Source of the DNA: Buttiauxella agrestis
Lineage (GTDB): Bacteria; Pseudomonadota; Gammaproteobacteria; Enterobacterales; Enterobacteriaceae
Direction: 5' to 3'
Assembly (NCBI RefSeq): GCF_900446255.1
Contig: NZ_UIGI01000001.1
Span: 250,763-274,762 of the forward strand
DNA: 24,000 nucleotides
This document shows positions 7,502 through 17,890 of the stretch, piece after piece (position 1 is the stretch's first letter; the number at the start of each line of letters is the position of its first letter). The notes beneath the pieces are model-generated. The model was not told the origin of the DNA, ran no database searches, and saw only the letters and a program-made list of their open reading frames with translations. The translations under genes and the position numbers were made by a program.

Positions 7502-8059
7502 TTAGTTTCCAAATTCTTTACTCAGCCATGCCACGAGACCCGCTGTGTCTATCGGCTCGCGGTGGTCCACGGTATAAACCGGCCCAAGCGACATCGGCTC
7601 TGCGTTATTCGCAAGTTTTACCAACTCCGGCAGATATTCTTCCCCTGGGTGCCCGTGGCGTCTTACGCCAAGCCGCTGCGCATAACGTTCGGCAGCAAGG
7701 GGACCAGGAATGTGGTTCCACACCTCCAGAACCCGGGTGACTCCCGCCTGCTCAAGATAACGCTCGAGCGCTTCTTTCGGCTGGAAGCCAAACCATGCAT
7801 CGACAATAAAGATACATTGCGTTGGGCTATCAGACACTATCGACCAAATCACTTCGTAGGCCGCGCTTCCCAGGCGGCGATTAAACGGCCTGTCTATCTC
7901 CTCGAACTGGGCCATAAAAGGTTCTTTGATACCGTCGATAGTTAGCAGCGGTAACGTAAACGCTTCGGACAACAAACGGGCGATAGTGCTTTTTCCTGAT
8001 GCGGGTACGCCGTTCACAAGTACCACCGTTTTGCCCTGTGTTCGCGTGGACTGGCTCAT
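7502..8059 (-). CDS. P-loop (AAA_33 / chloramphenicol-phosphotransferase- or zeta-like) small-molecule kinase family protein
   Basis: 185 aa. It has the Walker A VLVNGVPASGKST and a Walker-B-like FIVDAWF. Layout resembles CPT-type kinases as I recall them. Its ATG (8057-8059) overlaps the EIIA stop (8056-8058) as ATGA. It looks more GC-rich than the neighbouring genes. Confidence 0.7.
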   Translation of the reverse strand: MSQSTRTQGKTVVLVNGVPASGKSTIARLLSEAFTLPLLTIDGIKEPFMAQFEEIDRPFNRRLGSAAYEVIWSIVSDSPTQCIFIVDAWFGFQPKEALERYLEQAGVTRVLEVWNHIPGPLAAERYAQRLGVRRHGHPGEEYLPELVKLANNAEPMSLGPVYTVDHREPIDTAGLVAWLSKEFGN

Positions 8060-8493
8060 AATATTGCGATCACCTCTTCCTTAACTTTTGCCCGACGCAG
8101 TTTTGCCATCACATCGTCATCACCTAACAAATTCACAATCGCGCGGATACCTTCTTCGATGTGCCCGTTGCTGTCGCAGGCGGCAAACATAATCACGATG
8201 TCGGCCTTTCCGCTGTCGGCAAAGGCGATGGGTTCATCAAGTAACACCAGACTGAAGCCATTTTTTATCACCCCGCACTCAGGGCGAGCGTGGGGCATGG
8301 CAACGCCTTCTTCAAAAACGTAATACGCGCCATGCTCCAGAGTGTTTTTAATGACTGCCTCGTGATAAGAAGGCAGGATATAGCCCTTTTCAACCAACGG
8401 CTGAGCCGCAAGTCTAATCACCTTTTTCCAGTCTGTTTCGCGTATGCCAACTTGTATCGCCTGGGCTTCAATTAGTAACTCTTTAATAGCCAT
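8056..8493 (-). CDS. PTS EIIA component, ascorbate/mannitol type (UlaC/SgaA-like)
   Basis: 145 aa. The active-site context GVAMPHARPE parallels GLAMPHGRPE in UlaC. SD GGGAG lies upstream of the ATG. Confidence 0.9.
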   Translation of the reverse strand: MAIKELLIEAQAIQVGIRETDWKKVIRLAAQPLVEKGYILPSYHEAVIKNTLEHGAYYVFEEGVAMPHARPECGVIKNGFSLVLLDEPIAFADSGKADIVIMFAACDSNGHIEEGIRAIVNLLGDDDVMAKLRRAKVKEEVIAIL

Positions 8494-8502
8494 GCGAACT
8501 CC

Positions 8503-8772
8503 CTAAATAGTCTTGCGAATAATATTTCGTAGCTCATCAATTTTGACAAATAAACCATCGATATGCTGACGGTGCGTTTTACTCTTCGCATAGACTTGTA
8601 ACGCCTGGTTATAGCGCAGCATTAAGTTTTTCTGTGCTTCGCTATTGTCAGGATTATTCTTCAGTGTATTTTCCAGTGTCGTTAATTCAGCTTCATACTG
8701 TTGCGCCTGAATATCATATTGCGTGCTGTCTGAATTATTTTTCTGGAATAAACGTTTTAAAGATTCAAGCAT
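8503..8772 (-). CDS. Hypothetical 89-aa helical protein embedded in the PTS operon
   Basis: A good SD (GGGAG 6 nt before the ATG at 8772). The sequence is Gln/Asn/Lys-rich and predicted all-helical. I recognise no motif. Its stop lies 9 nt before the EIIA ATG. Confidence 0.5.
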   Translation of the reverse strand: MLESLKRLFQKNNSDSTQYDIQAQQYEAELTTLENTLKNNPDNSEAQKNLMLRYNQALQVYAKSKTHRQHIDGLFVKIDELRNIIRKTI

Positions 8773-8841
8773 AGCTATCTCCCGCCCCGACGGTTGCCGG
8801 GCAACCAGGGTTACATTGAAGAGTAAAGAATAACGCGGCGG

Positions 8842-9684
8842 TTATTTAAATAATGCGATCTTTTCGATTAAAACAGCAGCGACGGCGTCATTGGCCGGAA
8901 TTAAAAATTTACGCACGCTGTCGTTCACTTTGCCCTTCTCGAAGGTTTCTTTGCAGTGCCCGACCCACTGCACGTTCATTTCAGTGCCGACGTTAACTTT
9001 ATCAATCCCCCCGGCGACGGCGCGCCGCATATCTTCATCGCTCACACCTGTGCCACCGTGCAGCACCAGCGGGGTTTTGGTCACTTCACTGATATCTGCC
9101 AGCCGCTGATGCTGAATTTTCGCTTTGCCGGTATACAGGCCGTGTACCGTACCGACGGACACCGCCAGCATATCCACACCGGTTTCATCAACGAAACGTT
9201 TGGCGTCTTCGGTGGTGGTAAAGCAGATATCTTCCATGGCAACCGCTTTGCCATCTTCTGAGCCGCCAATTGCGCCTAATTCTGCTTCTACAGAGATATT
9301 TCGCGGGCGGGCAATATCAATAACCTTACGCGTATTGGCGATATTATCGGCCATATCCAGATGCGAACCGTCATACATGACCGAGCTAAATCCGGCGTCG
9401 ATGGCTGTTTTAATGGACTCAATATCCGAACAGTGATCCAGATGCAAACAGGTCGGTATTTGCTGACTTTCAGATAAAGAACGAATGGAATCGACCAATA
9501 AACGATAACCTAAATATTCCGCAGTCCCGGTAGAAATTTGAATCATTAACGGGCTATTGGTTGCTTTGGCAGCTTTAAAATAAGCGGGCAGCATTTCAAG
9601 GCAATGCAAATTAAAGGAGCCTACCGCTTTAAATTTACGCTCTTTGGCTACCTGTAATAAATCCGGGAAGTTATACAGACTCAT
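8842..9684 (-). CDS. Class II ketose-bisphosphate aldolase (GatY/KbaY/FbaA family)
   Basis: The track ORF has an N-terminal extension. I prefer the start MSLYNFPDLL at 9684. Motifs present are CLHLDHC, LVLHGGTG and VNVGTE. The start overlaps the EIIC 3' end by 14 nt. Confidence 0.9.
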   Translation of the reverse strand: MSLYNFPDLLQVAKERKFKAVGSFNLHCLEMLPAYFKAAKATNSPLMIQISTGTAEYLGYRLLVDSIRSLSESQQIPTCLHLDHCSDIESIKTAIDAGFSSVMYDGSHLDMADNIANTRKVIDIARPRNISVEAELGAIGGSEDGKAVAMEDICFTTTEDAKRFVDETGVDMLAVSVGTVHGLYTGKAKIQHQRLADISEVTKTPLVLHGGTGVSDEDMRRAVAGGIDKVNVGTEMNVQWVGHCKETFEKGKVNDSVRKFLIPANDAVAAVLIEKIALFK

Positions 9685-11038
9685 GTGCTTTTTCCTCTTG
9701 AGGTTTGGTTGATTTACCATTCACGAACCAGGCGATAAGCGCCACGAACAGGATGAATAGGCCGACAAACGTCCAGTTATTCTGGAATACATGCCCCAAA
9801 ATCAGGCCGCTACTGATCACATCTGAATCGCTGAAAGTCACACCGGTAAAGCCGTAGCTTTCAAGCATTGGCACCAGGATGGCTGGCAGGAAGGTAATAA
9901 ACAGGCCGTGTACTACGCCGCCGATAATCGCGCCGCGTCTGCCGCCCATTGCGTTACCGAAAATCCCAGCGGTGCCGCCAGCAAAGAAGTTGGTCAACAA
10001 GCCAGGCAGAATCATCGCCAGGCCAAACATTGGGAACACAATCATGCCGATGATGGAGCCAACGGTAGTAGCCAGGAAGCCAACAATCACGGCGTTGGGG
10101 GCGTAAGGGAACAGCACCGGGCAGTCCAGCGCCGGTTTGGCATCCGGTACGATGCGCATCGCAATACCACGGAATGCAGGCACTAGTTCGTTAAGCAGCA
10201 AACGCACACCGCTGTAGAGCACAAATACCCCGGCAACAAACTGAATCGCCTGCATAAAAGCAAACATCAGGTAATTCACGCCGTTGGAGTATTGGCCGAT
10301 GTATTCCGGGCCTGCCGCCAGCGCCGGGATGAGGTACATAGGGATCATCACCACGGCCATCGAAAGGTAAGTGTCTTGCAAGAATTTGAAGTTATCCGGT
10401 AGCACCAGATCTTCGGTAGATTTAGAACCCTTGCCGACAACCTTCGCCACTGCGGCCTGCACCAGATAACCAATAGTGCAGAAGTGGCCCAGCGCGACAT
10501 CGTCAGAACCGGTAATGCGGCGTACCACAGGTTGGGCGAGAGCAGGCATCAGCACCGCCATAATTCCGCCGAATATCCCGCCCGTGAGAATCAACGGCAG
10601 CCCCGTCAGCCCGGCTTTATAGCCGATAACGGCACCAATCGTTGCCATCCAGAGCAGTGCTTGCCCGGTGAGAAAGATGTACTTAAACGGTGTGATACGC
10701 GCAATGATGATGTTGATGATAAATATCACCATCAGCGTGAGTGCCACTTCGGAACCCAGCTCACGGTTTGCAAGGCCGGCAATAGCGGCCACATCGGTGA
10801 TGTAGCCTTTCATACCGAAACCGTGGGTGAAGATGTCGTTCAGGAAAGTCAGCGTATCAACAATAATGTTGATACCCGCCATCATGATTAAAAAACCAAG
10901 CAGCGTTTTAAACGTCCCTTCCGCGACTTTACCCTTCGATTTTTTTTGCAGCAAAAGACCGAGCATGGCAATAAAGGCAATCAATATTGATGCCTGTCCT
11001 AGCAGGTCTTTAACAATAAAGTTAATGATGCTATTCAT
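9671..11038 (-). CDS. PTS EIIC component, ascorbate family (UlaA/SgaT-like)
   Basis: 455 aa, polytopic membrane protein with a UlaA-like length and Gly/Pro-rich helices. Its ATG overlaps the EIIB stop by 8 nt. Confidence 0.9.
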   Translation of the reverse strand: MNSIINFIVKDLLGQASILIAFIAMLGLLLQKKSKGKVAEGTFKTLLGFLIMMAGINIIVDTLTFLNDIFTHGFGMKGYITDVAAIAGLANRELGSEVALTLMVIFIINIIIARITPFKYIFLTGQALLWMATIGAVIGYKAGLTGLPLILTGGIFGGIMAVLMPALAQPVVRRITGSDDVALGHFCTIGYLVQAAVAKVVGKGSKSTEDLVLPDNFKFLQDTYLSMAVVMIPMYLIPALAAGPEYIGQYSNGVNYLMFAFMQAIQFVAGVFVLYSGVRLLLNELVPAFRGIAMRIVPDAKPALDCPVLFPYAPNAVIVGFLATTVGSIIGMIVFPMFGLAMILPGLLTNFFAGGTAGIFGNAMGGRRGAIIGGVVHGLFITFLPAILVPMLESYGFTGVTFSDSDVISSGLILGHVFQNNWTFVGLFILFVALIAWFVNGKSTKPQEEKAHESV

Positions 11039-11345
11039 GGTCGAATACCTTCACATTGCGTTCTTTTAAAAAGGCGACAATCTTTTGTTCGATTTCGTCT
11101 TTATCCGTGAGGCGGTGCAGCACAATGACGCGTTTAATTTCCTCTTCGCTCGCATCGGCCGTTAAAATATCGGCGAACGTTTTTTGCGTTAAAATAATGT
11201 CAGATTTAAAGGCCCCAGCTTCTGATACGGTGGTGTGATCAATTTCTGCCGGAATCTGAAGTTTTTTAAGTACCGCAGTTGCAGCCATTTCAATGGCGAA
11301 ACTGGAACCTAAACCACAGCCGCATACACAAAGAATTTTAAGCAT
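11031..11345 (-). CDS. PTS EIIB component (UlaB/SgaB-like)
   Basis: I prefer the start MLKILCVCGCGLGSS at 11345, with SD GAGGAG 7 nt upstream. The phospho-cysteine loop is CVCGCGLGSS. Length is about 104 aa. Confidence 0.85.
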   Translation of the reverse strand: MLKILCVCGCGLGSSFAIEMAATAVLKKLQIPAEIDHTTVSEAGAFKSDIILTQKTFADILTADASEEEIKRVIVLHRLTDKDEIEQKIVAFLKERNVKVFDHE

Positions 11346-11356
11346 TGAAAGTCTCC

Positions 11357-12337
11357 TCAAATAATATTGAGCTGCTTCGCTAATTTATAATGATGCCCTT
11401 CGGTGTCGACGAGGCGTTTTTGCATACTGATTAAATCTATAGGGATCGGTTTGTTACTCGAATTAATAATAATGGCTTTATTTCTCATGCCGGACTGGAT
11501 ACAACGAACGACTTCACCTGCCATAATTGTGCCCTGATAAATTTCCTCGCAGGTAGGGTCACCGTTACGCAAGCTATAACCAATAATCGACTTACGAATT
11601 CGTACGCCAATTTTTGGCTCAAGTTGTTTAATCATGGTGTCAATCGCCCCCTGGAAGCCGGGGGAATATTCTTTGGTGTAACCTTCGGAGCACAAAATCA
11701 CGACGCTGTTTTGTGTCTCAAGGCGTGCGCTAATCTTGTGTGCCAGTTCGCTCAATGACTGTTGGCACTCGGGGATTAGCGCAAAATCAGCGTTGCTTTT
11801 AATCGCCGATTGCAGCGTCAACTCACCACAATATCCGCCGAGCAGTTCAACCATAAAAACCCGCCCTGGCAAAGCGCGACCTGTATTACGCAGTTTGCCG
11901 ACTTCTTTAATGACTTGTTCACAGGCAGTTGAAAAACCAATGGTGTAATCACTGCCGTAAACATCGTTGTCGATGGTCATACCGACACCGAAACAATTCA
12001 CACCATATTCGCTAAGGTTATTCAGAAACTGTAAGGAGCCGTCTCCGCCTGCCATAATAAGCACATCGATATGCAGGGTTTTTAACTGTTTTGCGATAGT
12101 TTCATATTCGCTACCCATTAATTTACGATGAGTTCTGCCTGAAGACATAATCGGAATGGCGGCAACAGAAAAATCCACTAGATCCCGTACGGAAATAGCC
12201 TGGTGATTATTCTGCAATAAACCTGGAATACCACCGTTAAACAAAACGATTTCTGCCTGTGCCAGTCGGGAAATCTGAAAAACAAAATTATTTATTCCCG
12301 TGACATCACCGCCGCTAATTACCATGCCGATTCTCAT
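11357..12337 (-). CDS. PfkA-family ATP-dependent sugar-phosphate kinase (6-phosphofructokinase-like)
   Basis: The track start is a TTG at 12400. I prefer the ATG at 12337 (MRIGMVISGGDVTGINN), with SD GAGG 8 nt upstream. PfkA motifs SGGD, MAGGDGS and GMTIDNDVYGSDYTIGF are present. The canonical MGRYCG reads LGGYCG here. Confidence 0.85.
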   Translation of the reverse strand: MRIGMVISGGDVTGINNFVFQISRLAQAEIVLFNGGIPGLLQNNHQAISVRDLVDFSVAAIPIMSSGRTHRKLMGSEYETIAKQLKTLHIDVLIMAGGDGSLQFLNNLSEYGVNCFGVGMTIDNDVYGSDYTIGFSTACEQVIKEVGKLRNTGRALPGRVFMVELLGGYCGELTLQSAIKSNADFALIPECQQSLSELAHKISARLETQNSVVILCSEGYTKEYSPGFQGAIDTMIKQLEPKIGVRIRKSIIGYSLRNGDPTCEEIYQGTIMAGEVVRCIQSGMRNKAIIINSSNKPIPIDLISMQKRLVDTEGHHYKLAKQLNII

Positions 12338-12395
12338 GATGCTCGCCTCGTTTATTTGCTTGCAGACATTTTTCCCTTTAAACAAGACTTGAATT

Positions 12396-12411
12396 TGCAA
12401 TGGATGTCACA
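12396..12411 (-). promoter_or_regulatory. Second, weaker CRP-like site, possibly class II
   Basis: The minus strand reads TGTGA-catcca-TTGCA. Its centre is 74 bp from the first site. If positioned at -41.5, it places a GAAAAAT -10-like element and a start about 24 nt before the pfk ATG. Confidence 0.3.
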
Positions 12412-12465
12412 AAAGCAGGATTCATTTAAGCCTGGAGGTCATTGACAGAGGGTTTTTAGGGGCGT

Positions 12466-12489
12466 TTTTTGTGATATGAATCACTGCTA
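12466..12489 (-). promoter_or_regulatory. Near-consensus CRP-binding site upstream of the pfk-PTS operon
   Basis: TGTGA (12470-12474), tatgaa, then TCACT (12481-12485), compared with the consensus TGTGA-N6-TCACA. Its centre is about 140 bp upstream of the pfk ATG. Confidence 0.6.
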
Positions 12490-12687
12490 ATTAATGGCGG
12501 GAAACAAAGTATTTGTTGAAAATATTTTATATTTCAATGGATTAATCTTGGCGGGTGAAAACTAATAATATCAGCGTGCACTTGGTTTTGATGGGGAATT
12601 ATTAGCTTTCAAAAATGTGACTGCTAACGCATTTTTATATGGCTGAAAAGGAATGGGGTTAATTTGGATGTCTAAAATAAATAAGCG

Positions 12688-12714
12688 TGAAGACGGATAA
12701 GCCATCCGTCTTCA
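12688..12714 (-). terminator. Rho-independent terminator after the acetyltransferase, at the end of the raf-like operon
   Basis: TGAAGACGGAT-5 nt loop-ATCCGTCTTCA forms an 11-bp stem, 18 nt after the stop. On the minus strand it is followed by CGCTTATTTATTTT. Confidence 0.7.
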
Positions 12715-12731: not shown

Positions 12732-13313
12732 CTAATCAGCAAAAGCCAATTTATCTTCCGCGCTAATGTCACGCAGCACCCGGCAAGGCACGCCTGCGGC
12801 AACCACGTTTGGCGGAATAGATTTTGTCACTACGCTGCCCGCGCCAATCACGCTGTTGCGACCAATCACCACGCCGGGGTTGATGATGACGCCCGTTCCC
12901 AGCCACACGTTATCTTCAATGGTGACGGGCAAAGAGAACTGCTGCCCGGTGATGCGGATTTCCGAGTCTATCGGATGCCCGGCGGTAGAAATGGTCACAT
13001 TGGGCGCAACCATCACGTTATCGCCAATCGTCACCGTGGCATCGTCCACCACGATGAAATTAAAGTTAGCGTAAAAGTTTTTGCCGATATGCGTGTGGCT
13101 GCCATAAGCCACGCGGATGGGCGGCTCGACCCAGCAATTTTCACCCACGCTGCCAAACAATTGCTGGAGCAGTTCAGCGCGGCGAGCCTCTTGCGAAGGG
13201 CGCGTCATGTTGTAGTCATAGACCCACTCTTTGCCTGCCCGGCGCTCTTCCGGCAACCCTTCACAATGGTCCGTATACAGTTCGCCAACTTCCATTTTTC
13301 TTCGTACTGACAT
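12732..13313 (-). CDS. Hexapeptide-repeat sugar O-acetyltransferase (Maa/LacA family)
   Basis: 193 aa. The N-terminal Mac-type region (GELY..) and left-handed beta-helix repeats (IGDNVMVAPNVTI, IEDNVWLGTGVIINPGVVIG) align well with E. coli Maa as I recall it. The SD overlaps the rafB stop, with a 12-nt gap. Confidence 0.9.
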   Translation of the reverse strand: MSVRRKMEVGELYTDHCEGLPEERRAGKEWVYDYNMTRPSQEARRAELLQQLFGSVGENCWVEPPIRVAYGSHTHIGKNFYANFNFIVVDDATVTIGDNVMVAPNVTISTAGHPIDSEIRITGQQFSLPVTIEDNVWLGTGVIINPGVVIGRNSVIGAGSVVTKSIPPNVVAAGVPCRVLRDISAEDKLAFAD

Positions 13314-13325
13314 GTTCTCTCTTCC

Positions 13326-14591
13326 TTAATTTACCGGAGCCGCCGCAGTTTGTGGGAGCGGAACTCTGTGATTTGACAGGGTAAACGCTGACACGACGGT
13401 GATGGTCAGCACGATACCGCCCAGAATCAGATAGGTATCCTGGAAGCCAATCTTATCGTACATATTTCCGGCAAAAGCCGAGAGGAAAATCGCCGCGGAC
13501 TGTTTGGCAAACTGGAAACCAATCAAATAAATCGTGGCCGACAGGCGGGTGTCGAACACGCCGGTAATATATTTAAACGCCCCAACCAGCAGGAACGGCA
13601 CTTCCAGCGCATGCAACATTTTGAGTGCAATCACTTCAAACGCCGTGGTGGCAAAAGCCGAGCCGATGATACGGGTGGTCATGATCGCCCCGGCAATCAG
13701 CAGCGTGTTTTTGGCGCCGATGCGGTTAATGATCCACGGCGAGCAGAACATAATAATCGCGTTGCAAATTTCTCCGGCAGTGGTCGCAAAACCGAAGGCT
13801 TGGGTGCCTTGCTGTGGGGTATCAAAGAAGGTTTTAAAGAAGGTCGCAAACTGTTGATCGAAGACGTCATAAACGCATGCCACACCCACCACATAGAGAA
13901 TGAACATCCACATTTTGGGCATTTTAAATAACGAAAAGACCATTTTTGCAGAAATCTGGCGCTGATTGGCACCCAAAGAATCCATTACCTGCGCGGTCTG
14001 GTTTGCCTGCGGGCGAGCGACCAGCAACAGCACCATCAAAATCACTGCCGCACCTGAACCCATCCAGAACACAAACGCCGGATTAACGTTAAATAACATC
14101 CCTGCGGTCGAAGCGCACAACCCCCAACCCAGGCAGCCAAACATCCGCGCTTTTCCATACTCAAAATAGCTATTGCGGCTCACGCGTTCGATATACGCCT
14201 CAATCGCGCCGGAACCGGCAGAGAATACAAAACCGATATAAATCCCGCCCGCAAGCGCACCGAGCACGATATTGGCTTTTAGCAGCGGAGCGAAAACATA
14301 CAGGAAGAAGGGGGCGAAGAAGAACAGCATCAGGGTTATGACCCACAGCAAATGCTTTTTAAGCCCCAGTTTGTCGGAAATGATCCCCAGAACGGGCTGG
14401 CAGAGAATGGCAAACAGCGAAATACAGGAAAACACGATCCCGGTATGCGTTTTATTCAGGCCGATCACGTCCGAAAGCCAGATGGGCAGGAACGGGAAAC
14501 AGGTCGCCATAATGAAAAAGTAGAGAAAGAAAAACAGGCCAAAAATCCAGAAGTTAGGGTTATTTTTATGGGTACAGGCAGGCATGCTCAT
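13326..14591 (-). CDS. rafB: Raffinose/alpha-galactoside:H+ symporter, LacY family (RafB-like)
   Basis: I prefer the start MSMPACTHKNNPNFWIFGLFFFLYFFIMATCFPFLP at 14591, with SD GAGGA 7 nt upstream. It is very similar along its length to plasmid RafB and to LacY as I recall them. Confidence 0.9.
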   Translation of the reverse strand: MSMPACTHKNNPNFWIFGLFFFLYFFIMATCFPFLPIWLSDVIGLNKTHTGIVFSCISLFAILCQPVLGIISDKLGLKKHLLWVITLMLFFFAPFFLYVFAPLLKANIVLGALAGGIYIGFVFSAGSGAIEAYIERVSRNSYFEYGKARMFGCLGWGLCASTAGMLFNVNPAFVFWMGSGAAVILMVLLLVARPQANQTAQVMDSLGANQRQISAKMVFSLFKMPKMWMFILYVVGVACVYDVFDQQFATFFKTFFDTPQQGTQAFGFATTAGEICNAIIMFCSPWIINRIGAKNTLLIAGAIMTTRIIGSAFATTAFEVIALKMLHALEVPFLLVGAFKYITGVFDTRLSATIYLIGFQFAKQSAAIFLSAFAGNMYDKIGFQDTYLILGGIVLTITVVSAFTLSNHRVPLPQTAAAPVN

Positions 14592-14652
14592 TGTGTTTTC
14601 CTCAAAGGGACAAACTTGATGGGGCAGCGCGTGCCACCCCGATGTCATGGTA

Positions 14653-16776
14653 TTACACGCGTTCAAAGCCAATCAAAATGGCGCTTTCCGGGTCGAGGAT
14701 CGGTAGTGCTAATCCGGCCTGTGCCAGCCATTCTCCGCTAACGGTTTGCGTTGTTTCCATCCAGCCCGGCAGCTTGCGCATGGTATGACCGCCTTTGCCC
14801 ACCACGCTGATTTGTGGATGGTCGAGCAGGGTAATGCGATAACGAGCCGCCGGGTCCAGCCCTGGCACGCGCAAATTACCGGCGAGCGTATAATCCGGCA
14901 TCGCCAGTTGGCTGACCAAATACAGCGCCTGAGATTTATCTTCCGCAACGACACCTTGCACTTGCGTTGTGGCATCTGGCATATCCACACGCCACTGTTT
15001 GCCGGTATGCAGCAGCGGTCGCCACTGTTTGTAGAGTTGCACGTAGCGCTCGTAACCTGCGCTTTCGGCAGCGTCGGCCGTCATCGGGTCAAGCTCCATA
15101 CCCAGATGCCCGAACAGGGCTGTCAGGCCACGAAAATCAATGCTGTGCTGGCGATAGGTGGCATGGCAACGCAGATTGCCGATGTGCGCACCCATCACTT
15201 CCGGCGGGAAGAAATAGCTCATGCCGCGCTGGATGGTATTACGCTCCAGCGCATCATTATTGTCTGACGCCCAGAAGCGGTGGGTGCGTTTTAACACTTC
15301 ATAGTCGATTCGCCCGCCACCCGATGCGCAGGATTCAAACTCAACGTGTGGGTATTTGCGGTTAAGTTCGTCCAACAGGCGGTAAAACTGACGAGTTTGT
15401 GCATCCGCTGCCGCTTTGCCATTGTGCCCCGCCTGAACCAGCTCGCGGTTCATATCCCACTTCACGTAATCAATCGGATGTTCGCCCAGCAGCCAGTTCA
15501 TGCGCTCTAAAAGATAATCGAACACCTGTGGATTACTAAGATCCAGCACCCACTGGTAGCGCCCGGTGGCCTGCTCGTAGCCCGGCAGCGCCAGTACCCA
15601 ATCGGGATGCGCACGGTATAAATCGGAATCCGGGTTAATCATTTCCGGCTCGACCCAAATACCAAATTCCATGCCGCACGCTTTCACATGGTTGATAACC
15701 GGCATCAAACCGTTCGGATATTTTTGCTCATCAAGATACCAGTCGCCGAGCGCTGCCCGGTCATGATTGCGGCCTTTAAACCAGCCGTCATCAATGATGA
15801 AACGCTCCACACCCAGCTCGGCGGCGCGGCTCGCCATTTGCATGATGTATTCCGGGTTATGGTCGAAATAGATCCCTTCCCACGTATTGAGATGCACCGG
15901 GCGCGGCTTATTTTCCGGGAAGCGAATAACCTGTTCGCGCAGGAATTGGTGGAACTGCTGGCTCATGCCATTCAGACCGCTGGCCGAGTGGCTGGCATAA
16001 AGCCATGGCGTATGCAGCGTTTCGCCTTCACCCAGCGCCATTTCGCCCGCCAGATACAGCGCTTCGGCTTGCAGATAACGACGGCCATCCGTTTTCACTT
16101 CGCAGCGCAAGCGGTGGTTGCCGCTCCAGCCCAAATGCACGCCCCACACATCGCCTTGCTGTTCACTAAATGCGGCCGTTCCCGCAATCATGGCCGGGAA
16201 ATGTTCGTGCGAGGTGCGCCCACGGCGATTTTCCAGCACGAAGCTGTCATGCTCAAGGCGAATGCGATGTGGCTGGAATTCACGTGTCCAGCGACCATGA
16301 AACGCCATGACTTCGAGTGCGCGTTCGGCAATGGGCAGAGTGATGGCCAGGCGATCCACTTGCCACGGAGTCGCGCGTAAGTTGGCCAGCCCATGGCGAA
16401 TTTGCAACACGCCGCTGCTGTCAAGACGAAGCTCGCTAATCAGGCGCAAACCGGCCTGCTTATCCTCAGCGGTGATCGTTATATTCTGGCCGTTTTGTTC
16501 AACCTGCGTGGTGGTAAAAACCGGAGAGGCATCCAGGCCGTTGCGATGGCCTTCAATCCCCGGCGAGCCAAACAAACCGCGCCCGAGTTCTGCACCTAAG
16601 GTTATCGGCGTATCAATATCAAGGCGGCCATTGGCGATGGGGCGATCCAGGCTGGCGCTATCTTGCGGTGAAAAGTGCGCAAGATGCTGGCCCCAGTAGA
16701 CTATTTCGGCGAAAGGTTGGGTTCTTATAACGATGTCGCTTTGGGCGCTGGTTAAGCGATGATAAATCGGTTCCAT
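14653..16776 (-). CDS. rafA: Alpha-galactosidase, GH36 (RafA-like)
   Basis: The start is uncertain: 16776 (MEPIYHRLTS, best match to the RafA N-terminus MISKYCRLTS) or 16785. There are long stretches nearly identical to RafA as I recall it (MAFHGRWTREFQPHR, FIIDDGWF, YVKWDMNR, ESCASGGGR). Confidence 0.9.
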   Translation of the reverse strand: MEPIYHRLTSAQSDIVIRTQPFAEIVYWGQHLAHFSPQDSASLDRPIANGRLDIDTPITLGAELGRGLFGSPGIEGHRNGLDASPVFTTTQVEQNGQNITITAEDKQAGLRLISELRLDSSGVLQIRHGLANLRATPWQVDRLAITLPIAERALEVMAFHGRWTREFQPHRIRLEHDSFVLENRRGRTSHEHFPAMIAGTAAFSEQQGDVWGVHLGWSGNHRLRCEVKTDGRRYLQAEALYLAGEMALGEGETLHTPWLYASHSASGLNGMSQQFHQFLREQVIRFPENKPRPVHLNTWEGIYFDHNPEYIMQMASRAAELGVERFIIDDGWFKGRNHDRAALGDWYLDEQKYPNGLMPVINHVKACGMEFGIWVEPEMINPDSDLYRAHPDWVLALPGYEQATGRYQWVLDLSNPQVFDYLLERMNWLLGEHPIDYVKWDMNRELVQAGHNGKAAADAQTRQFYRLLDELNRKYPHVEFESCASGGGRIDYEVLKRTHRFWASDNNDALERNTIQRGMSYFFPPEVMGAHIGNLRCHATYRQHSIDFRGLTALFGHLGMELDPMTADAAESAGYERYVQLYKQWRPLLHTGKQWRVDMPDATTQVQGVVAEDKSQALYLVSQLAMPDYTLAGNLRVPGLDPAARYRITLLDHPQISVVGKGGHTMRKLPGWMETTQTVSGEWLAQAGLALPILDPESAILIGFERV

Positions 16777-16813
16777 GAATGGCATCTCTGGGAAAGTGAT
16801 GTCATTACTGTTG

Positions 16814-16831
16814 ATCCGAAACGTTTCGGAT
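16814..16831. promoter_or_regulatory. raf operator, promoter-distal: perfect 18-bp palindrome
   Basis: ATCCGAAACGTTTCGGAT is a perfect palindrome with a LacI-family CG centre. It lies 38 bp upstream of the preferred rafA ATG. Confidence 0.75.
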
Positions 16832-16835
16832 GCCA

Positions 16836-16851
16836 ATCAAAACGTTTCGGT
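16836..16851. promoter_or_regulatory. Second raf operator: imperfect palindrome
   Basis: ATCAAAACGTTTCGGT has the same AAACGTTTCGG half. Its centre is exactly 21 bp from the first operator. TTGATTGGCA (a candidate -35, TTGGCA or TTGATT) lies between the two. A perfect TATAAT (minus strand, 16864-16869) lies just upstream of both. I could not assemble a fully convincing -35/-10 pair. Confidence 0.65.
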
Positions 16852-16882
16852 AATGTGATCGTGATTATAAAATCAGTGAAAT

Positions 16883-17890
16883 TCAGGCTGGAGGATTAGT
16901 GGTGACGCCGGGAATAAATTCCGGTTGCCAAAGTACTTGCAGGGAATCGATAGGTTGGCCGGAAATCAGGCCTAGCACCATGCTTGAAATTTGCTTTCCG
17001 ACGCCTTCACGCGTCGATTGAACCACGGCGGCGACGTCAGTTTCGACAATGCTGTCCGTTGGCAAACCATCGTAAACCACTAAAGAAACGCGATTTTCAC
17101 CGGTCAATAAGCCCATATGCTGCAATGCCATCGCGGCACCGTCGCCATGCGAGTTGCAGTCGGTAACTATCGCCGTGGGTGGCGAGGGTAACGCCATTAA
17201 CTCTTGCACGGCTTTGTAACCCGCGCGGCGGGTTGGTGGCACTTCGCGTAGATAATCCATGGATAAATGGTGGTTTGCGAGCGCATCAAGATAACCGTTG
17301 CGGCGTTGTGTGATAAATGCCTGATAGTTATTTTCACCTAGCAAAGCGATTCGCTCATGTCCCAGTGAAATCAGATGGTTAGCCGCATTAAATGTGCCAG
17401 CGTGGTTGTCAAAATCAAACCATGCGTAGGGTTGAGCCAGTTGGCTGCGACCCAGCGCTAAAAATGGGAAACCGGCAGATTGTAGCTGTTGCAAACGTGG
17501 ATCGTTATCGAGAGTGTGAGCCACAATCAGCGCATCGACACGGCGGCCTTGCACCATTCGCATAAATCCGTGCCGATCGGCATTATCGTCATCGGCAATG
17601 AGCAGCAAATCCACTTCATGTTGCGCCAGTTCGCGGCTAATTTCGCCGACCATGTCCATAAAGACGCTGTTATTGAGCGGCACGGGATGAACAGGGAAAA
17701 CCAGGCCAACGGCATCAATTTTCCCCATCTTCAGGCGACGGGCAAAGGTATTTGGGCGGTAACCACGGCGCTGTGCTTCGGCTTCGACACGTGCTTTTGT
17801 CTCTTGCGATACATCGTCATAACCGTTCAGCGCGCGGCTGACAGTCGTAACAGAAAGTCCGAGTTGTTTGGCGATGGCTTTAAGCGACAT
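16883..17890 (-). CDS. rafR: LacI-family raffinose operon repressor (RafR-like)
   Basis: 335 aa. MSLKAIAKQLGLSVTTVSRALNGYDDV...RRGYRPNTFARRLKMGK closely matches RafR as I recall it. It sits upstream of rafA and rafB in the same orientation, as in the plasmid raf operon. Confidence 0.9.
   Translation of the reverse strand: MSLKAIAKQLGLSVTTVSRALNGYDDVSQETKARVEAEAQRRGYRPNTFARRLKMGKIDAVGLVFPVHPVPLNNSVFMDMVGEISRELAQHEVDLLLIADDDNADRHGFMRMVQGRRVDALIVAHTLDNDPRLQQLQSAGFPFLALGRSQLAQPYAWFDFDNHAGTFNAANHLISLGHERIALLGENNYQAFITQRRNGYLDALANHHLSMDYLREVPPTRRAGYKAVQELMALPSPPTAIVTDCNSHGDGAAMALQHMGLLTGENRVSLVVYDGLPTDSIVETDVAAVVQSTREGVGKQISSMVLGLISGQPIDSLQVLWQPEFIPGVTTNPPA

Follow-up and report, generated by a model that had tools for sequence, protein, structure and literature searches.

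A seven-gene PTS cassette of Buttiauxella agrestis with a PfkA paralogue, a class II aldolase and a predicted role in ketose catabolism

Gene content and conservation of the cassette

The locus studied here lies in a window of 24,000 nucleotides (nt) of Buttiauxella agrestis contig NZ_UIGI01000001.1, and all coordinates are positions in this window. It consists of seven open reading frames (ORFs) on the minus strand, packed into positions 7502-12337. In the direction of reading, the first gene encodes a PfkA-family kinase paralogue of 326 amino acids (aa) (pfk, 11357-12337), putatively a ketose-phosphate kinase. Two subunits of a phosphotransferase system (PTS) follow: enzyme IIB (EIIB, 104 aa, 11031-11345) and an enzyme IIC of the L-ascorbate (UlaA/SgaT) family (EIIC, 455 aa, 9671-11038). 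Next come a class II ketose-bisphosphate aldolase (280 aa, 8842-9684) and an 89-aa three-helix protein (8503-8772), probably a PTS accessory. The last two genes encode an enzyme IIA of the Mtl/Fru/Asc type (EIIA, 145 aa, 8056-8493) and a P-loop small-molecule kinase with a Walker A motif (185 aa, 7502-8059), a candidate second sugar-phosphate kinase. A first-pass annotation of this DNA listed the same seven genes, and both their place and their families are borne out.

The mechanical ORF list over-extends three genes (pfk, EIIB and aldolase). We set their starts at 12337, 11345 and 9684, using orthologue alignments and Shine-Dalgarno sequences. More precisely, GAGGAG precedes the ATG of the EIIB gene at 11345; likewise, the 89-aa gene presents GGGAG. 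With these starts, EIIB and EIIC overlap by 8 nt, EIIC and aldolase by 14 nt, and EIIA and P-loop kinase by 4 nt. The gaps measure 11, 69 and 9 nt. The spacings given earlier (overlaps of 8, 14 and 4 nt, gaps of 9 to 69 nt) are thus exact.

We scanned one genome per species for relatives and obtained 80 loci. The cassette is found in about 78 species of Enterobacterales and Vibrio, with the gene order kept. All seven genes, in identical order, recur in each related locus that a contig end does not truncate; the set is therefore conserved far beyond chance. The comparison of gene neighbourhood and co-occurrence proposed with the first-pass annotation shows it intact and collinear across relatives. 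The genera are Buttiauxella, Dryocola, Cedecea, Scandinavium, Klebsiella (including K. pneumoniae ATCC 13883), Raoultella, Citrobacter, Kluyvera, Phytobacter, Mangrovibacter, Serratia, Pantoea, Erwinia and Vibrio (V. ruber). The closest relative is the locus of Buttiauxella brennerae, 97% identical. The flanking genes vary by lineage, and any one of them is common to at most 21 loci. Upstream of pfk, about 300 bp can be aligned across genera and the DNA beyond is unrelated, so this leader travels with the genes. We read the locus as a catabolic cassette that is self-contained and moves horizontally.

Conservation is not uniform among the products. Mean column identity reaches 93% in EIIC (48 species), 60% in the 89-aa protein and 59% in the P-loop protein. 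The P-loop marker is present in 15 of 401 sampled genomes of the order as defined by GTDB, and in 10 of 29 of the home family. A megablast search of Escherichia coli complete genomes gave no match to the cassette, and by blastn none of 5,426 such genomes covers at least 80% of pfk-EIIB-EIIC. The partial E. coli matches come from another PTS of the Asc family, which has a LacI regulator. Because the home genome also encodes FbaA, a KbaY equivalog, two further EIIC-GAT proteins and a canonical PfkA, the cassette counts as an additional set.

Besides this arrangement, we observed four related architectures with a PTS. The Vibrio-like variant has the same seven genes as the window. In the low-GC variant (29-33% G+C), a divergent DeoR gene is followed by PFK-EIIB-EIIC-orf89-class II aldolase-EIIA-aldose 1-epimerase, where orf89 is the 89-aa gene; here, a mutarotase-family gene holds the slot after EIIA that the P-loop gene takes in the window. 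The 42%-GC variant (L092) lacks PFK and reads EIIB-EIIC-orf89-EIIA-P-loop-LacD-like class I aldolase-HAD phosphatase. Finally, the PRD variant consists of a PRD/EIIA regulator, EIIB, EIIC, an orf89-like gene, a class II aldolase and a P-loop-like protein. The invariant set over the PTS variants is EIIB, EIIC, orf89, EIIA and an aldolase of either class.

Functional residues of the seven products

The EIIC scores 406.7 bits on PF03611 (EIIC-GAT) and 821.8 bits on the equivalog NF009551, 'PTS sugar transporter subunit IIC' (cut-off 657). It also passes NF006919, 'PTS ascorbate transporter subunit IIC' (478.9 bits, cut-off 380). It is not the UlaA equivalog (NF009549, 406.3 bits, cut-off 890). 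EIIB passes PF02302 and EIIA matches PF00359 with 102.2 bits. The N-terminal phospho-cysteine motif of EIIB (CVCGCGLGSS) and the phospho-histidine motif of EIIA (IPHARPE) are both invariant over 48 species. By these matches, the enzyme II (EII) complex is of the Asc (UlaA/SgaT) family, with separate EIIB and EIIA as predicted phospho-acceptors. The components resemble those of the Ula (sga) regulon, which has a UlaA-type EIIC, a UlaB-type EIIB and a UlaC-type EIIA. However, the cassette carries a kinase and an aldolase in place of UlaG, UlaD, UlaE and UlaF. None of the seven products matches the UlaG lactonase, the UlaD decarboxylase or the UlaE/UlaF epimerases, so the earlier statement that Ula-type enzymes are missing stands.

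The PfkA-family kinase matches PF00365 with 197.9 bits and stays under the 6-phosphofructokinase models TIGR02482 (158 bits, cut-off 371) and NF002872 (203 bits, cut-off 253). Its residues were read from an alignment to the phosphofructokinase (PFK) of B. stearothermophilus, whose numbering we take to match that of E. coli PfkA. It retains G11, R72, D103, T125, D127 (the catalytic base), D129, R162, E222, R243 and R252. It also has SGGD, GGDGS and TIDND aligned to the nucleotide and Mg motifs. The fructose-6-phosphate site is incomplete, with M169L, R171G and H249Y, and effector-site residues are lost (R21F, K213). The changes M169L, R171G/A and H249Y/F are kept in all variants of this kinase, whether enterobacterial, vibrio-like or low-GC (patterns L/V-L-G-G/A and G-Y/F). 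We read the protein as a sugar-phosphate kinase whose substrate is probably not fructose-6-phosphate.

The aldolase matches PF01116 with 298.5 bits and presents the metal and catalytic motifs HLDH, VHG and LHGG. It passes only the broad ketose-bisphosphate aldolase model, TIGR00167 (261 bits, cut-off 215.6). The genome's own KbaY reaches 613 bits on the tagatose-bisphosphate (TBP) aldolase model. As the first-pass annotation had said, there is no GatZ/KbaZ-type gene among the seven. A KVNVGTE motif is shared by the aldolases of 71 related loci and by six of the seven further variant aldolases examined. At its Gly position, the KbaY of the genome has Ala and FbaA has Asp. This position is reportedly discussed as a stereo-determinant in the AgaY structure paper.

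The 89-aa ORF has no family match. It is intact in 78 loci. Its family is very small, with about 30 clusters (50% identity) in a set of 1.8 billion representative proteins. Beyond these clusters, the similarity is weak, repeat-like and directed to long helical proteins. The model is a three-helix bundle with a mean predicted local distance difference test (pLDDT) score of 77. Foldseek against the PDB gave no match at E ≤0.001, the atlas search gave none, and a profile search of PDB sequences gave nothing under E 0.01. VIA-align returned three-helix bundles of a generic kind only (Z of about 8-10), a level that helical models reach as background. Complex prediction of EIIC, EIIA and EIIB with the 89-aa partner gave 0.24, under the mark of 0.32, a value that weighs neither way.

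The position of this gene is more telling. It lies between EIIC and EIIA in every PTS variant. The protein is not detectable in versions with a transporter of the ATP-binding cassette (ABC) class and a ROK kinase (described below), although these retain the aldolase and the P-loop domain. For this reason, the 89-aa protein tracks the PTS and not the aldolase, which would make it a PTS accessory. We considered it as a GatZ-like partner of the aldolase and rejected this as our first choice, as it stays with EIIC and EIIA when the aldolase class changes and is missing from the aldolase-bearing ABC versions.

The P-loop protein scores 20.3 bits on AAA_33 (cut-off 27) and 19.8 bits on CPT (cut-off 22), and AAA_18 is likewise sub-threshold. 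Many of its orthologues carry precomputed PF13671 or PF07931 matches. No variation is seen in the Walker A motif (GxPASGKS), in D42 or in the arginines of the lid. Its model (pLDDT 90.7) has a fold that matches P-loop kinases. The closest solved relative is PDB 2rhm, putative kinase Caur_3907 of Chloroflexus aurantiacus, alike in fold (Foldseek E 2e-11, template modelling score 0.76) and in profile (E 2e-14). This entry is about 26% identical and comes from structural genomics; it adds nothing on the substrate. Adenylate, PSTK, gluconate and shikimate kinases are the next structural neighbours. The protein atlas search returned generic AAA_33 clusters only.

The context of the P-loop domain is more informative than these scores. 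With 51% identity over its full length, it forms the C-terminus of ROK sugar kinase fusions of about 480-510 aa in two alphaproteobacterial-type genomes. Among the matches listed, 120 of 120 longer P-loop homologues carry PF00480 (ROK). The hosts are Rhizobium, Agrobacterium, Mesorhizobium, Devosia, Shinella, Rubellimicrobium and relatives. The ROK::P-loop gene adjoins a LacD-like class I aldolase, 61% identical to the aldolase of the 42%-GC PTS variant; the LacD-like aldolases of the 42%-GC and Rhizobiales variants match NF009498. It also adjoins a SorC-type regulator and an RbsB/AlsB-like ABC transporter, and polyol dehydrogenase genes lie nearby in Agrobacterium and Rubellimicrobium. In the 42%-GC and ABC variants, the P-loop domain is the sole candidate for a second phosphorylation.

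Because it is fused to a ROK sugar kinase beside a LacD-like aldolase, this Rosetta-stone arrangement and its context argue that the P-loop protein may be a second-step sugar-phosphate kinase. A module of P-loop kinase and LacD-like aldolase would then work either with a PTS or with an ABC transporter and a ROK kinase. The first-pass annotation held that the roles of the two extra genes could not be deduced from known pathways. This no longer applies to the P-loop protein, for which the ROK fusion suggests a role. For the 89-aa protein it holds in part, since this protein tracks the PTS.

The fusions are also of interest in themselves. They measure about 470-510 aa, are widespread in Rhizobiales and Rhodobacterales, and always neighbour a LacD-like aldolase and an ABC transporter of the ribose/allose type. 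Examples lie at L099:8352-9890, L100:7989-9437, L104:7001-8458 and L105:7001-8425, where they are annotated just as 'ROK family protein' or 'glucokinase'. The ROK::P-loop locus looks like an uncharacterised hexitol or ketose pathway in its own right.

Leader, regulators and surroundings

Three sites resembling the binding site of CRP are present in the leader, all on the minus strand. The distal 16-mer, TGCGTTAGCAGTCACA (12616-12631), lies 294 nt upstream of the pfk ATG and is found with at most two mismatches in 77 of 80 loci. A flanking AAAAATG box is conserved across genera. The second site, aGTGA-N6-TCACA (12470-12485, 148 nt upstream), is near-consensus. Its position is kept in 75 of 80 loci, and 37 loci, including that of Vibrio ruber, present a perfect TGTGA-N6-TCACA. 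It is the sole match in the window with at most one mismatch to the CRP consensus; in a single window such a match is not significant, as 44 of 100 shuffles give at least one. The proximal site, TGTGACATCCATTGCA (12396-12411, 74 nt upstream), occurs in 63 of 80 loci, and its right half, TTGCAAAT, is nearly invariant.

Closer to the gene, the GGGAAAAAT box (12368-12376, minus strand, -39 to -31 from the ATG) is a candidate -10 element. With at most two mismatches, it appears at -45 to -34 in 61 of 80 loci. If this box is the -10, the CRP-like site at -74 would stand at a class II position. Other boxes are conserved as well, among them TGTCAA at about -108 in 74 loci; they suggest that a specific regulator has an operator here. 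A search of Rfam gave no RNA family for the operon or the leader. The near-consensus CRP site had been called the only clear control element. It is indeed there and its position is conserved, but it is one of three positionally conserved CRP-like 16-mers and is accompanied by other boxes.

The window has no dedicated regulator adjacent to the operon, as noted before, but other lineages do. Nine Serratia loci have a DeoR-family gene immediately upstream, on the strand of the operon. The low-GC variants carry a divergently oriented DeoR gene, and a PRD regulator with an EIIA domain heads the operon in another variant. The home genome has no orthologue of the Serratia DeoR; its best match is 32% identical. 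The DeoR proteins of Serratia and of the low-GC variants are only 24% identical to each other, so they were probably recruited independently.

The boundaries of the operon are marked by two hairpins. Upstream, a terminator-like hairpin of the neighbouring acetyltransferase gene (12688-12714, minus strand) has a 12-pair stem and then a T-rich tail. Downstream, a GC-rich hairpin between the convergent P-loop and EIIBC genes (7450-7474, AAGCCCTCTG-ctatc-CAGAGGGCTT, read from the sequence) is likely a bidirectional terminator. The consensus scan did not call it because the minus strand has no T-run after it. That scan, of promoters and terminators, gave no signal above the shuffled background. Inside the 69-nt gap between the aldolase and 89-aa genes, there is a perfect inverted repeat, GGTTGCC-C-GGCAACC (8792-8806). 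It could be an intra-operon RNA stabiliser or a processing site.

The G+C content is uneven in the cassette: 36% in the leader, 37% in the 89-aa gene, 42.5% in the EIIB gene, 44% in pfk, 51.5% in the EIIC gene and 54% in the P-loop gene, with a window average of 48%. Since related variants sit in genomes of 29-33% G+C, part of the cassette may have come from a low-GC source.

A module at 3743-7441 converges on the operon. It encodes a LacI-type regulator, a double-SIS (GlmS-isomerase/FrlB-like) protein and a Bgl/Scr-type EIIBC without an EIIA domain. The same module is the downstream neighbour in some Buttiauxella and Dryocola loci (L001, L002, L008). On the other side, the minus strand holds a raf-like cluster (12732-17890) with a LacI-type regulator, an alpha-galactosidase-sized gene and a permease. 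This cluster ends in a galactoside/maltose O-acetyltransferase (NF007076, 286 bits, under the cut-off), not in an invertase.

Two records among the relatives look mislabelled or contaminated. In the one titled Pseudomonas lundensis I31 (L021), the cassette is as similar to that of the window as are the Serratia proteamaculans loci. The other, a 4.1-Mb record titled Enterobacter ludwigii E2023-21 (L026), equals Pantoea loci gene for gene, with the same coordinates. The E. coli system found by partial matches is represented by strain SK1144 (L098, NZ_AP018784.2, 4284672-4287989). It consists of an orphan Asc-family PTS (EIIA-EIIB-EIIC) and a LacI-family regulator, flanked by transposase remnants. 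Among the 5,426 complete E. coli genomes, 1,332 carry it, O104:H4 strains among them, and no catabolic enzymes are linked to it.

Proposed pathway and alternatives

We propose, with a probability of roughly 0.6, that the cassette imports a ketose, phosphorylates it twice and splits it into glycolytic pieces; its biochemical steps and the class of its substrate are deduced from sequence. Judging by family membership, EIIA, EIIB and the Asc-family EIIC would import the sugar and add the first phosphate. The second phosphate would come from the PfkA paralogue, the P-loop kinase or both. The class II aldolase would then cleave the bisphosphate into dihydroxyacetone phosphate and an aldose phosphate, which would be glyceraldehyde-3-phosphate for a hexulose. 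The 89-aa protein may serve the PTS part as an accessory. Transcription would start from the leader of about 300 bp and depend on CRP. A sugar-specific repressor would be linked in some lineages (DeoR in Serratia), and unlinked or missing here. The first-pass annotation had sketched the same logic of uptake, second phosphorylation and aldol cleavage, which the family matches, the residues and the variant architectures appear to uphold.

The closest precedent is the D-tagatose cluster of E. coli Nissle 1917. Besides an ABC transporter and a tagatose kinase, it encodes a class II aldolase, a member of the aldose 1-epimerase family and a DeoR/GlpR regulator, without GatZ, and it requires the housekeeping PfkA for converting tagatose-6-phosphate to the bisphosphate (PMC9720028). 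The cassette would share with it the ketohexose 6-phosphate, a 1,6-bisphosphate step by a PfkA-family enzyme and a class II aldolase encoded in a cluster that lacks a GatZ/KbaZ gene. Moreover, both the Nissle cluster and the low-GC variants hold an aldose 1-epimerase and a DeoR-type regulator. The differences are also clear. Uptake in Nissle relies on the ABC transporter and a separate sugar kinase, in the cassette on a PTS. The PfkA of Nissle is the chromosomal housekeeping enzyme, whereas the cassette has a dedicated paralogue with R171G and H249Y. Nissle has neither the P-loop kinase nor the 89-aa protein, and its substrate is proven.

The first-pass annotation took a PfkA-type kinase as a departure from the tagatose route. 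This does not hold, as the housekeeping PfkA of E. coli is already a tagatose-6-phosphate kinase (PMC9720028). Given this precedent, such a kinase is normal in the route, and the epimerase-family gene of the low-GC variants fits a ketohexose pathway.

Other systems are more distant. The galactitol (gat) and N-acetylgalactosamine (aga/kba) systems of E. coli are similar in PTS uptake, in tagatose-6-phosphate, in the PfkA-type second phosphorylation and in a class II TBP aldolase. They differ in using Gat- or Man-family transporters, in needing a dehydrogenase or a deacetylase/deaminase, and in pairing GatY/KbaY with GatZ/KbaZ. The aldolase of the cassette reaches 233 bits against a TBP cut-off of 443, and the Z subunit is absent. 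The Gram-positive LacABCD pathway likewise phosphorylates a sugar 6-phosphate and then uses a bisphosphate aldolase, and LacD-like class I aldolases are present in the 42%-GC and Rhizobiales variants. However, LacC is of the PfkB family and the LacAB isomerase is required, whereas the kinases here are of the PfkA family and the P-loop type, and an isomerase is absent.

In the literature searched there is no paper on this operon and no characterised orthologue with an assigned substrate, which agrees with the earlier remark that no known pathway names it. Two systems were set aside: the tag operon of S. meliloti, which uses TagD and TagE, and EtcABC of K. pneumoniae, another locus with a contiguous A-B-C order. 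For the substrate, our leading guesses are a heptulose or a rare D-ketohexose (e.g. D-tagatose). PfkA-family enzymes and class II fructose-bisphosphate (FBP) aldolases accept sedoheptulose phosphates. The literature searched contained no paper on a sedoheptulose PTS.

Several points weigh against a ketose pathway or against its details. To our knowledge, only L-ascorbate-type anions are established as substrates of Asc-family PTS, not neutral ketoses. The aldolase stays below the TBP-aldolase equivalogs (TIGR01858, 233 bits, cut-off 443.6; NF009375, 202 bits, cut-off 542) and below those of FBP aldolases (TIGR01859, 284.5 bits, cut-off 343; NF009497, 272.9 bits, cut-off 423). The Gly of KVNVGTE was considered as a marker of tagatose-type specificity and kept as a weak hint only, because a PDB chain named KbaY carries Asp there. 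The P-loop protein passes none of the curated family models, and the nearest solved structure, 2rhm, is of a protein without known function. The presence of two candidate second kinases is a further difficulty; they might serve a pair of related substrates, or two forms of a single one, anomeric or positional. The consensus promoter scan of the leader is no better than shuffles and does not support the promoter model.

The substrates taken by other systems also count here. Klebsiella has separate D-tagatose, L-sorbose and fructose loci, so the obvious ketohexoses are covered. Because it thus has separate systems for psicose, fructose, sorbose and tagatose, a rarer hexulose or a plant heptulose is plausible for the cassette. 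The D-psicose locus of K. pneumoniae is a permease/ribokinase/AlsE/DeoC cluster (PMC6020474). As a different cluster, it was also rejected as a characterised orthologue.

Among the alternatives, the one that survives best leaves the core pathway standing and removes the P-loop protein from it. The protein would act on a nucleotide, on a protein (e.g. a PTS component) or on a toxic analogue, or it would be regulatory. Its matches to AAA_33 and CPT are all sub-threshold, and by structure its neighbours are an uncharacterised protein and the adenylate, PSTK, gluconate and shikimate kinases. Besides, the low-GC variants do without it and have an aldose 1-epimerase in that place. The overlap of its start with the EIIA stop, seen in all variants having the gene, could also be counted for this idea, but the low-GC epimerase gene overlaps the EIIA stop likewise, so the coupling is unspecific. 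Against it, a ROK fusion beside a LacD-like aldolase is a classic signature of consecutive steps, and the 42%-GC and ABC variants offer no other candidate for the second phosphorylation. We regard this alternative as rather unlikely.

A more extensive change would replace the ketose by an ascorbate-like sugar acid or lactone, or by a keto-acid. The aldolase would then cleave a phosphorylated keto-acid, as IolJ does with 2-deoxy-5-keto-gluconate-6-phosphate, and the kinases would serve side reactions. The L-ascorbate family of EIIC, which passes NF006919 (479 bits against 380), fits this idea, and PF01116 members include IolJ-type enzymes. However, lactonase, decarboxylase and dehydrogenase are absent from every variant. 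Each variant couples the transporter with a bisphosphate-type aldolase and at least one extra kinase, the PfkA paralogue retains the sugar-phosphate clamp, and the Rhizobiales equivalents adjoin polyol dehydrogenases and ribose/allose-type binding proteins. We consider a sugar acid improbable.

Still less probable, to our judgement, is a redundant entry into glycolysis of the fructose or mannose type, in which the PTS makes fructose-6-phosphate and the operon supplies a PFK and an FBP aldolase. Indeed, the kinase and the aldolase find their best NCBIfam and PDB matches among 6-phosphofructokinases and FBP aldolases. Nevertheless, both proteins are well under the equivalog cut-offs, R171 and H249 are missing from the kinase in every orthologue, and the genome already has canonical PfkA and FbaA. 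A duplicate of housekeeping steps is not expected to preserve such distinct active-site changes.

Finally, the cassette could be a PTS branch with a mostly regulatory task, whose phosphorelay would act on cyclic AMP (cAMP) or other targets, as proposed for Klebsiella EtcABC. This would suit the lack of a known substrate and the altered cAMP signalling of K. pneumoniae overexpressing another orphan EII complex (PMC6629953). We hold it for very improbable, as EtcABC has a different, contiguous A-B-C layout, the cassette always carries catabolic enzymes and the 93% column identity of EIIC points to very strong purifying selection.

The PTS-linked ketose-bisphosphate pathway is of an already known kind. 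The conserved three-site leader, the lineage-specific regulators, the invariant core of PTS and orf89, and the ROK::P-loop fusion are new here. A bolder proposal joins several of these elements. The P-loop protein would be a third class of ketose-phosphate kinase, unrelated to PfkA and PfkB, either free in PTS operons or fused to ROK in alphaproteobacteria. The 89-aa protein would be a new accessory subunit of Asc-family PTS, and the substrate a natural plant ketose that is not known to use a PTS for entry into bacteria (e.g. sedoheptulose, mannoheptulose or a rare hexulose). As a whole, this proposal is speculative, and we would sooner bet against it than for it.

The cassette is present in Klebsiella pneumoniae, Raoultella, the Serratia liquefaciens group, Pantoea, Erwinia, Citrobacter and some vibrios, and in none of the E. 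coli genomes searched. It may thus define a nutrient niche (plant, gut or food) by which these bacteria are set apart. If true, a second substrate class would widen the Asc PTS family. With the ROK::P-loop fusion, a widespread gene known from annotation merely as 'AAA family ATPase' receives a concrete hypothesis on its role, and the binding protein of the Rhizobiales ABC version is a possible route to the identity of the sugar. Kinases and aldolases of rare sugars with relaxed or unusual stereochemistry would be useful for rare-sugar production.

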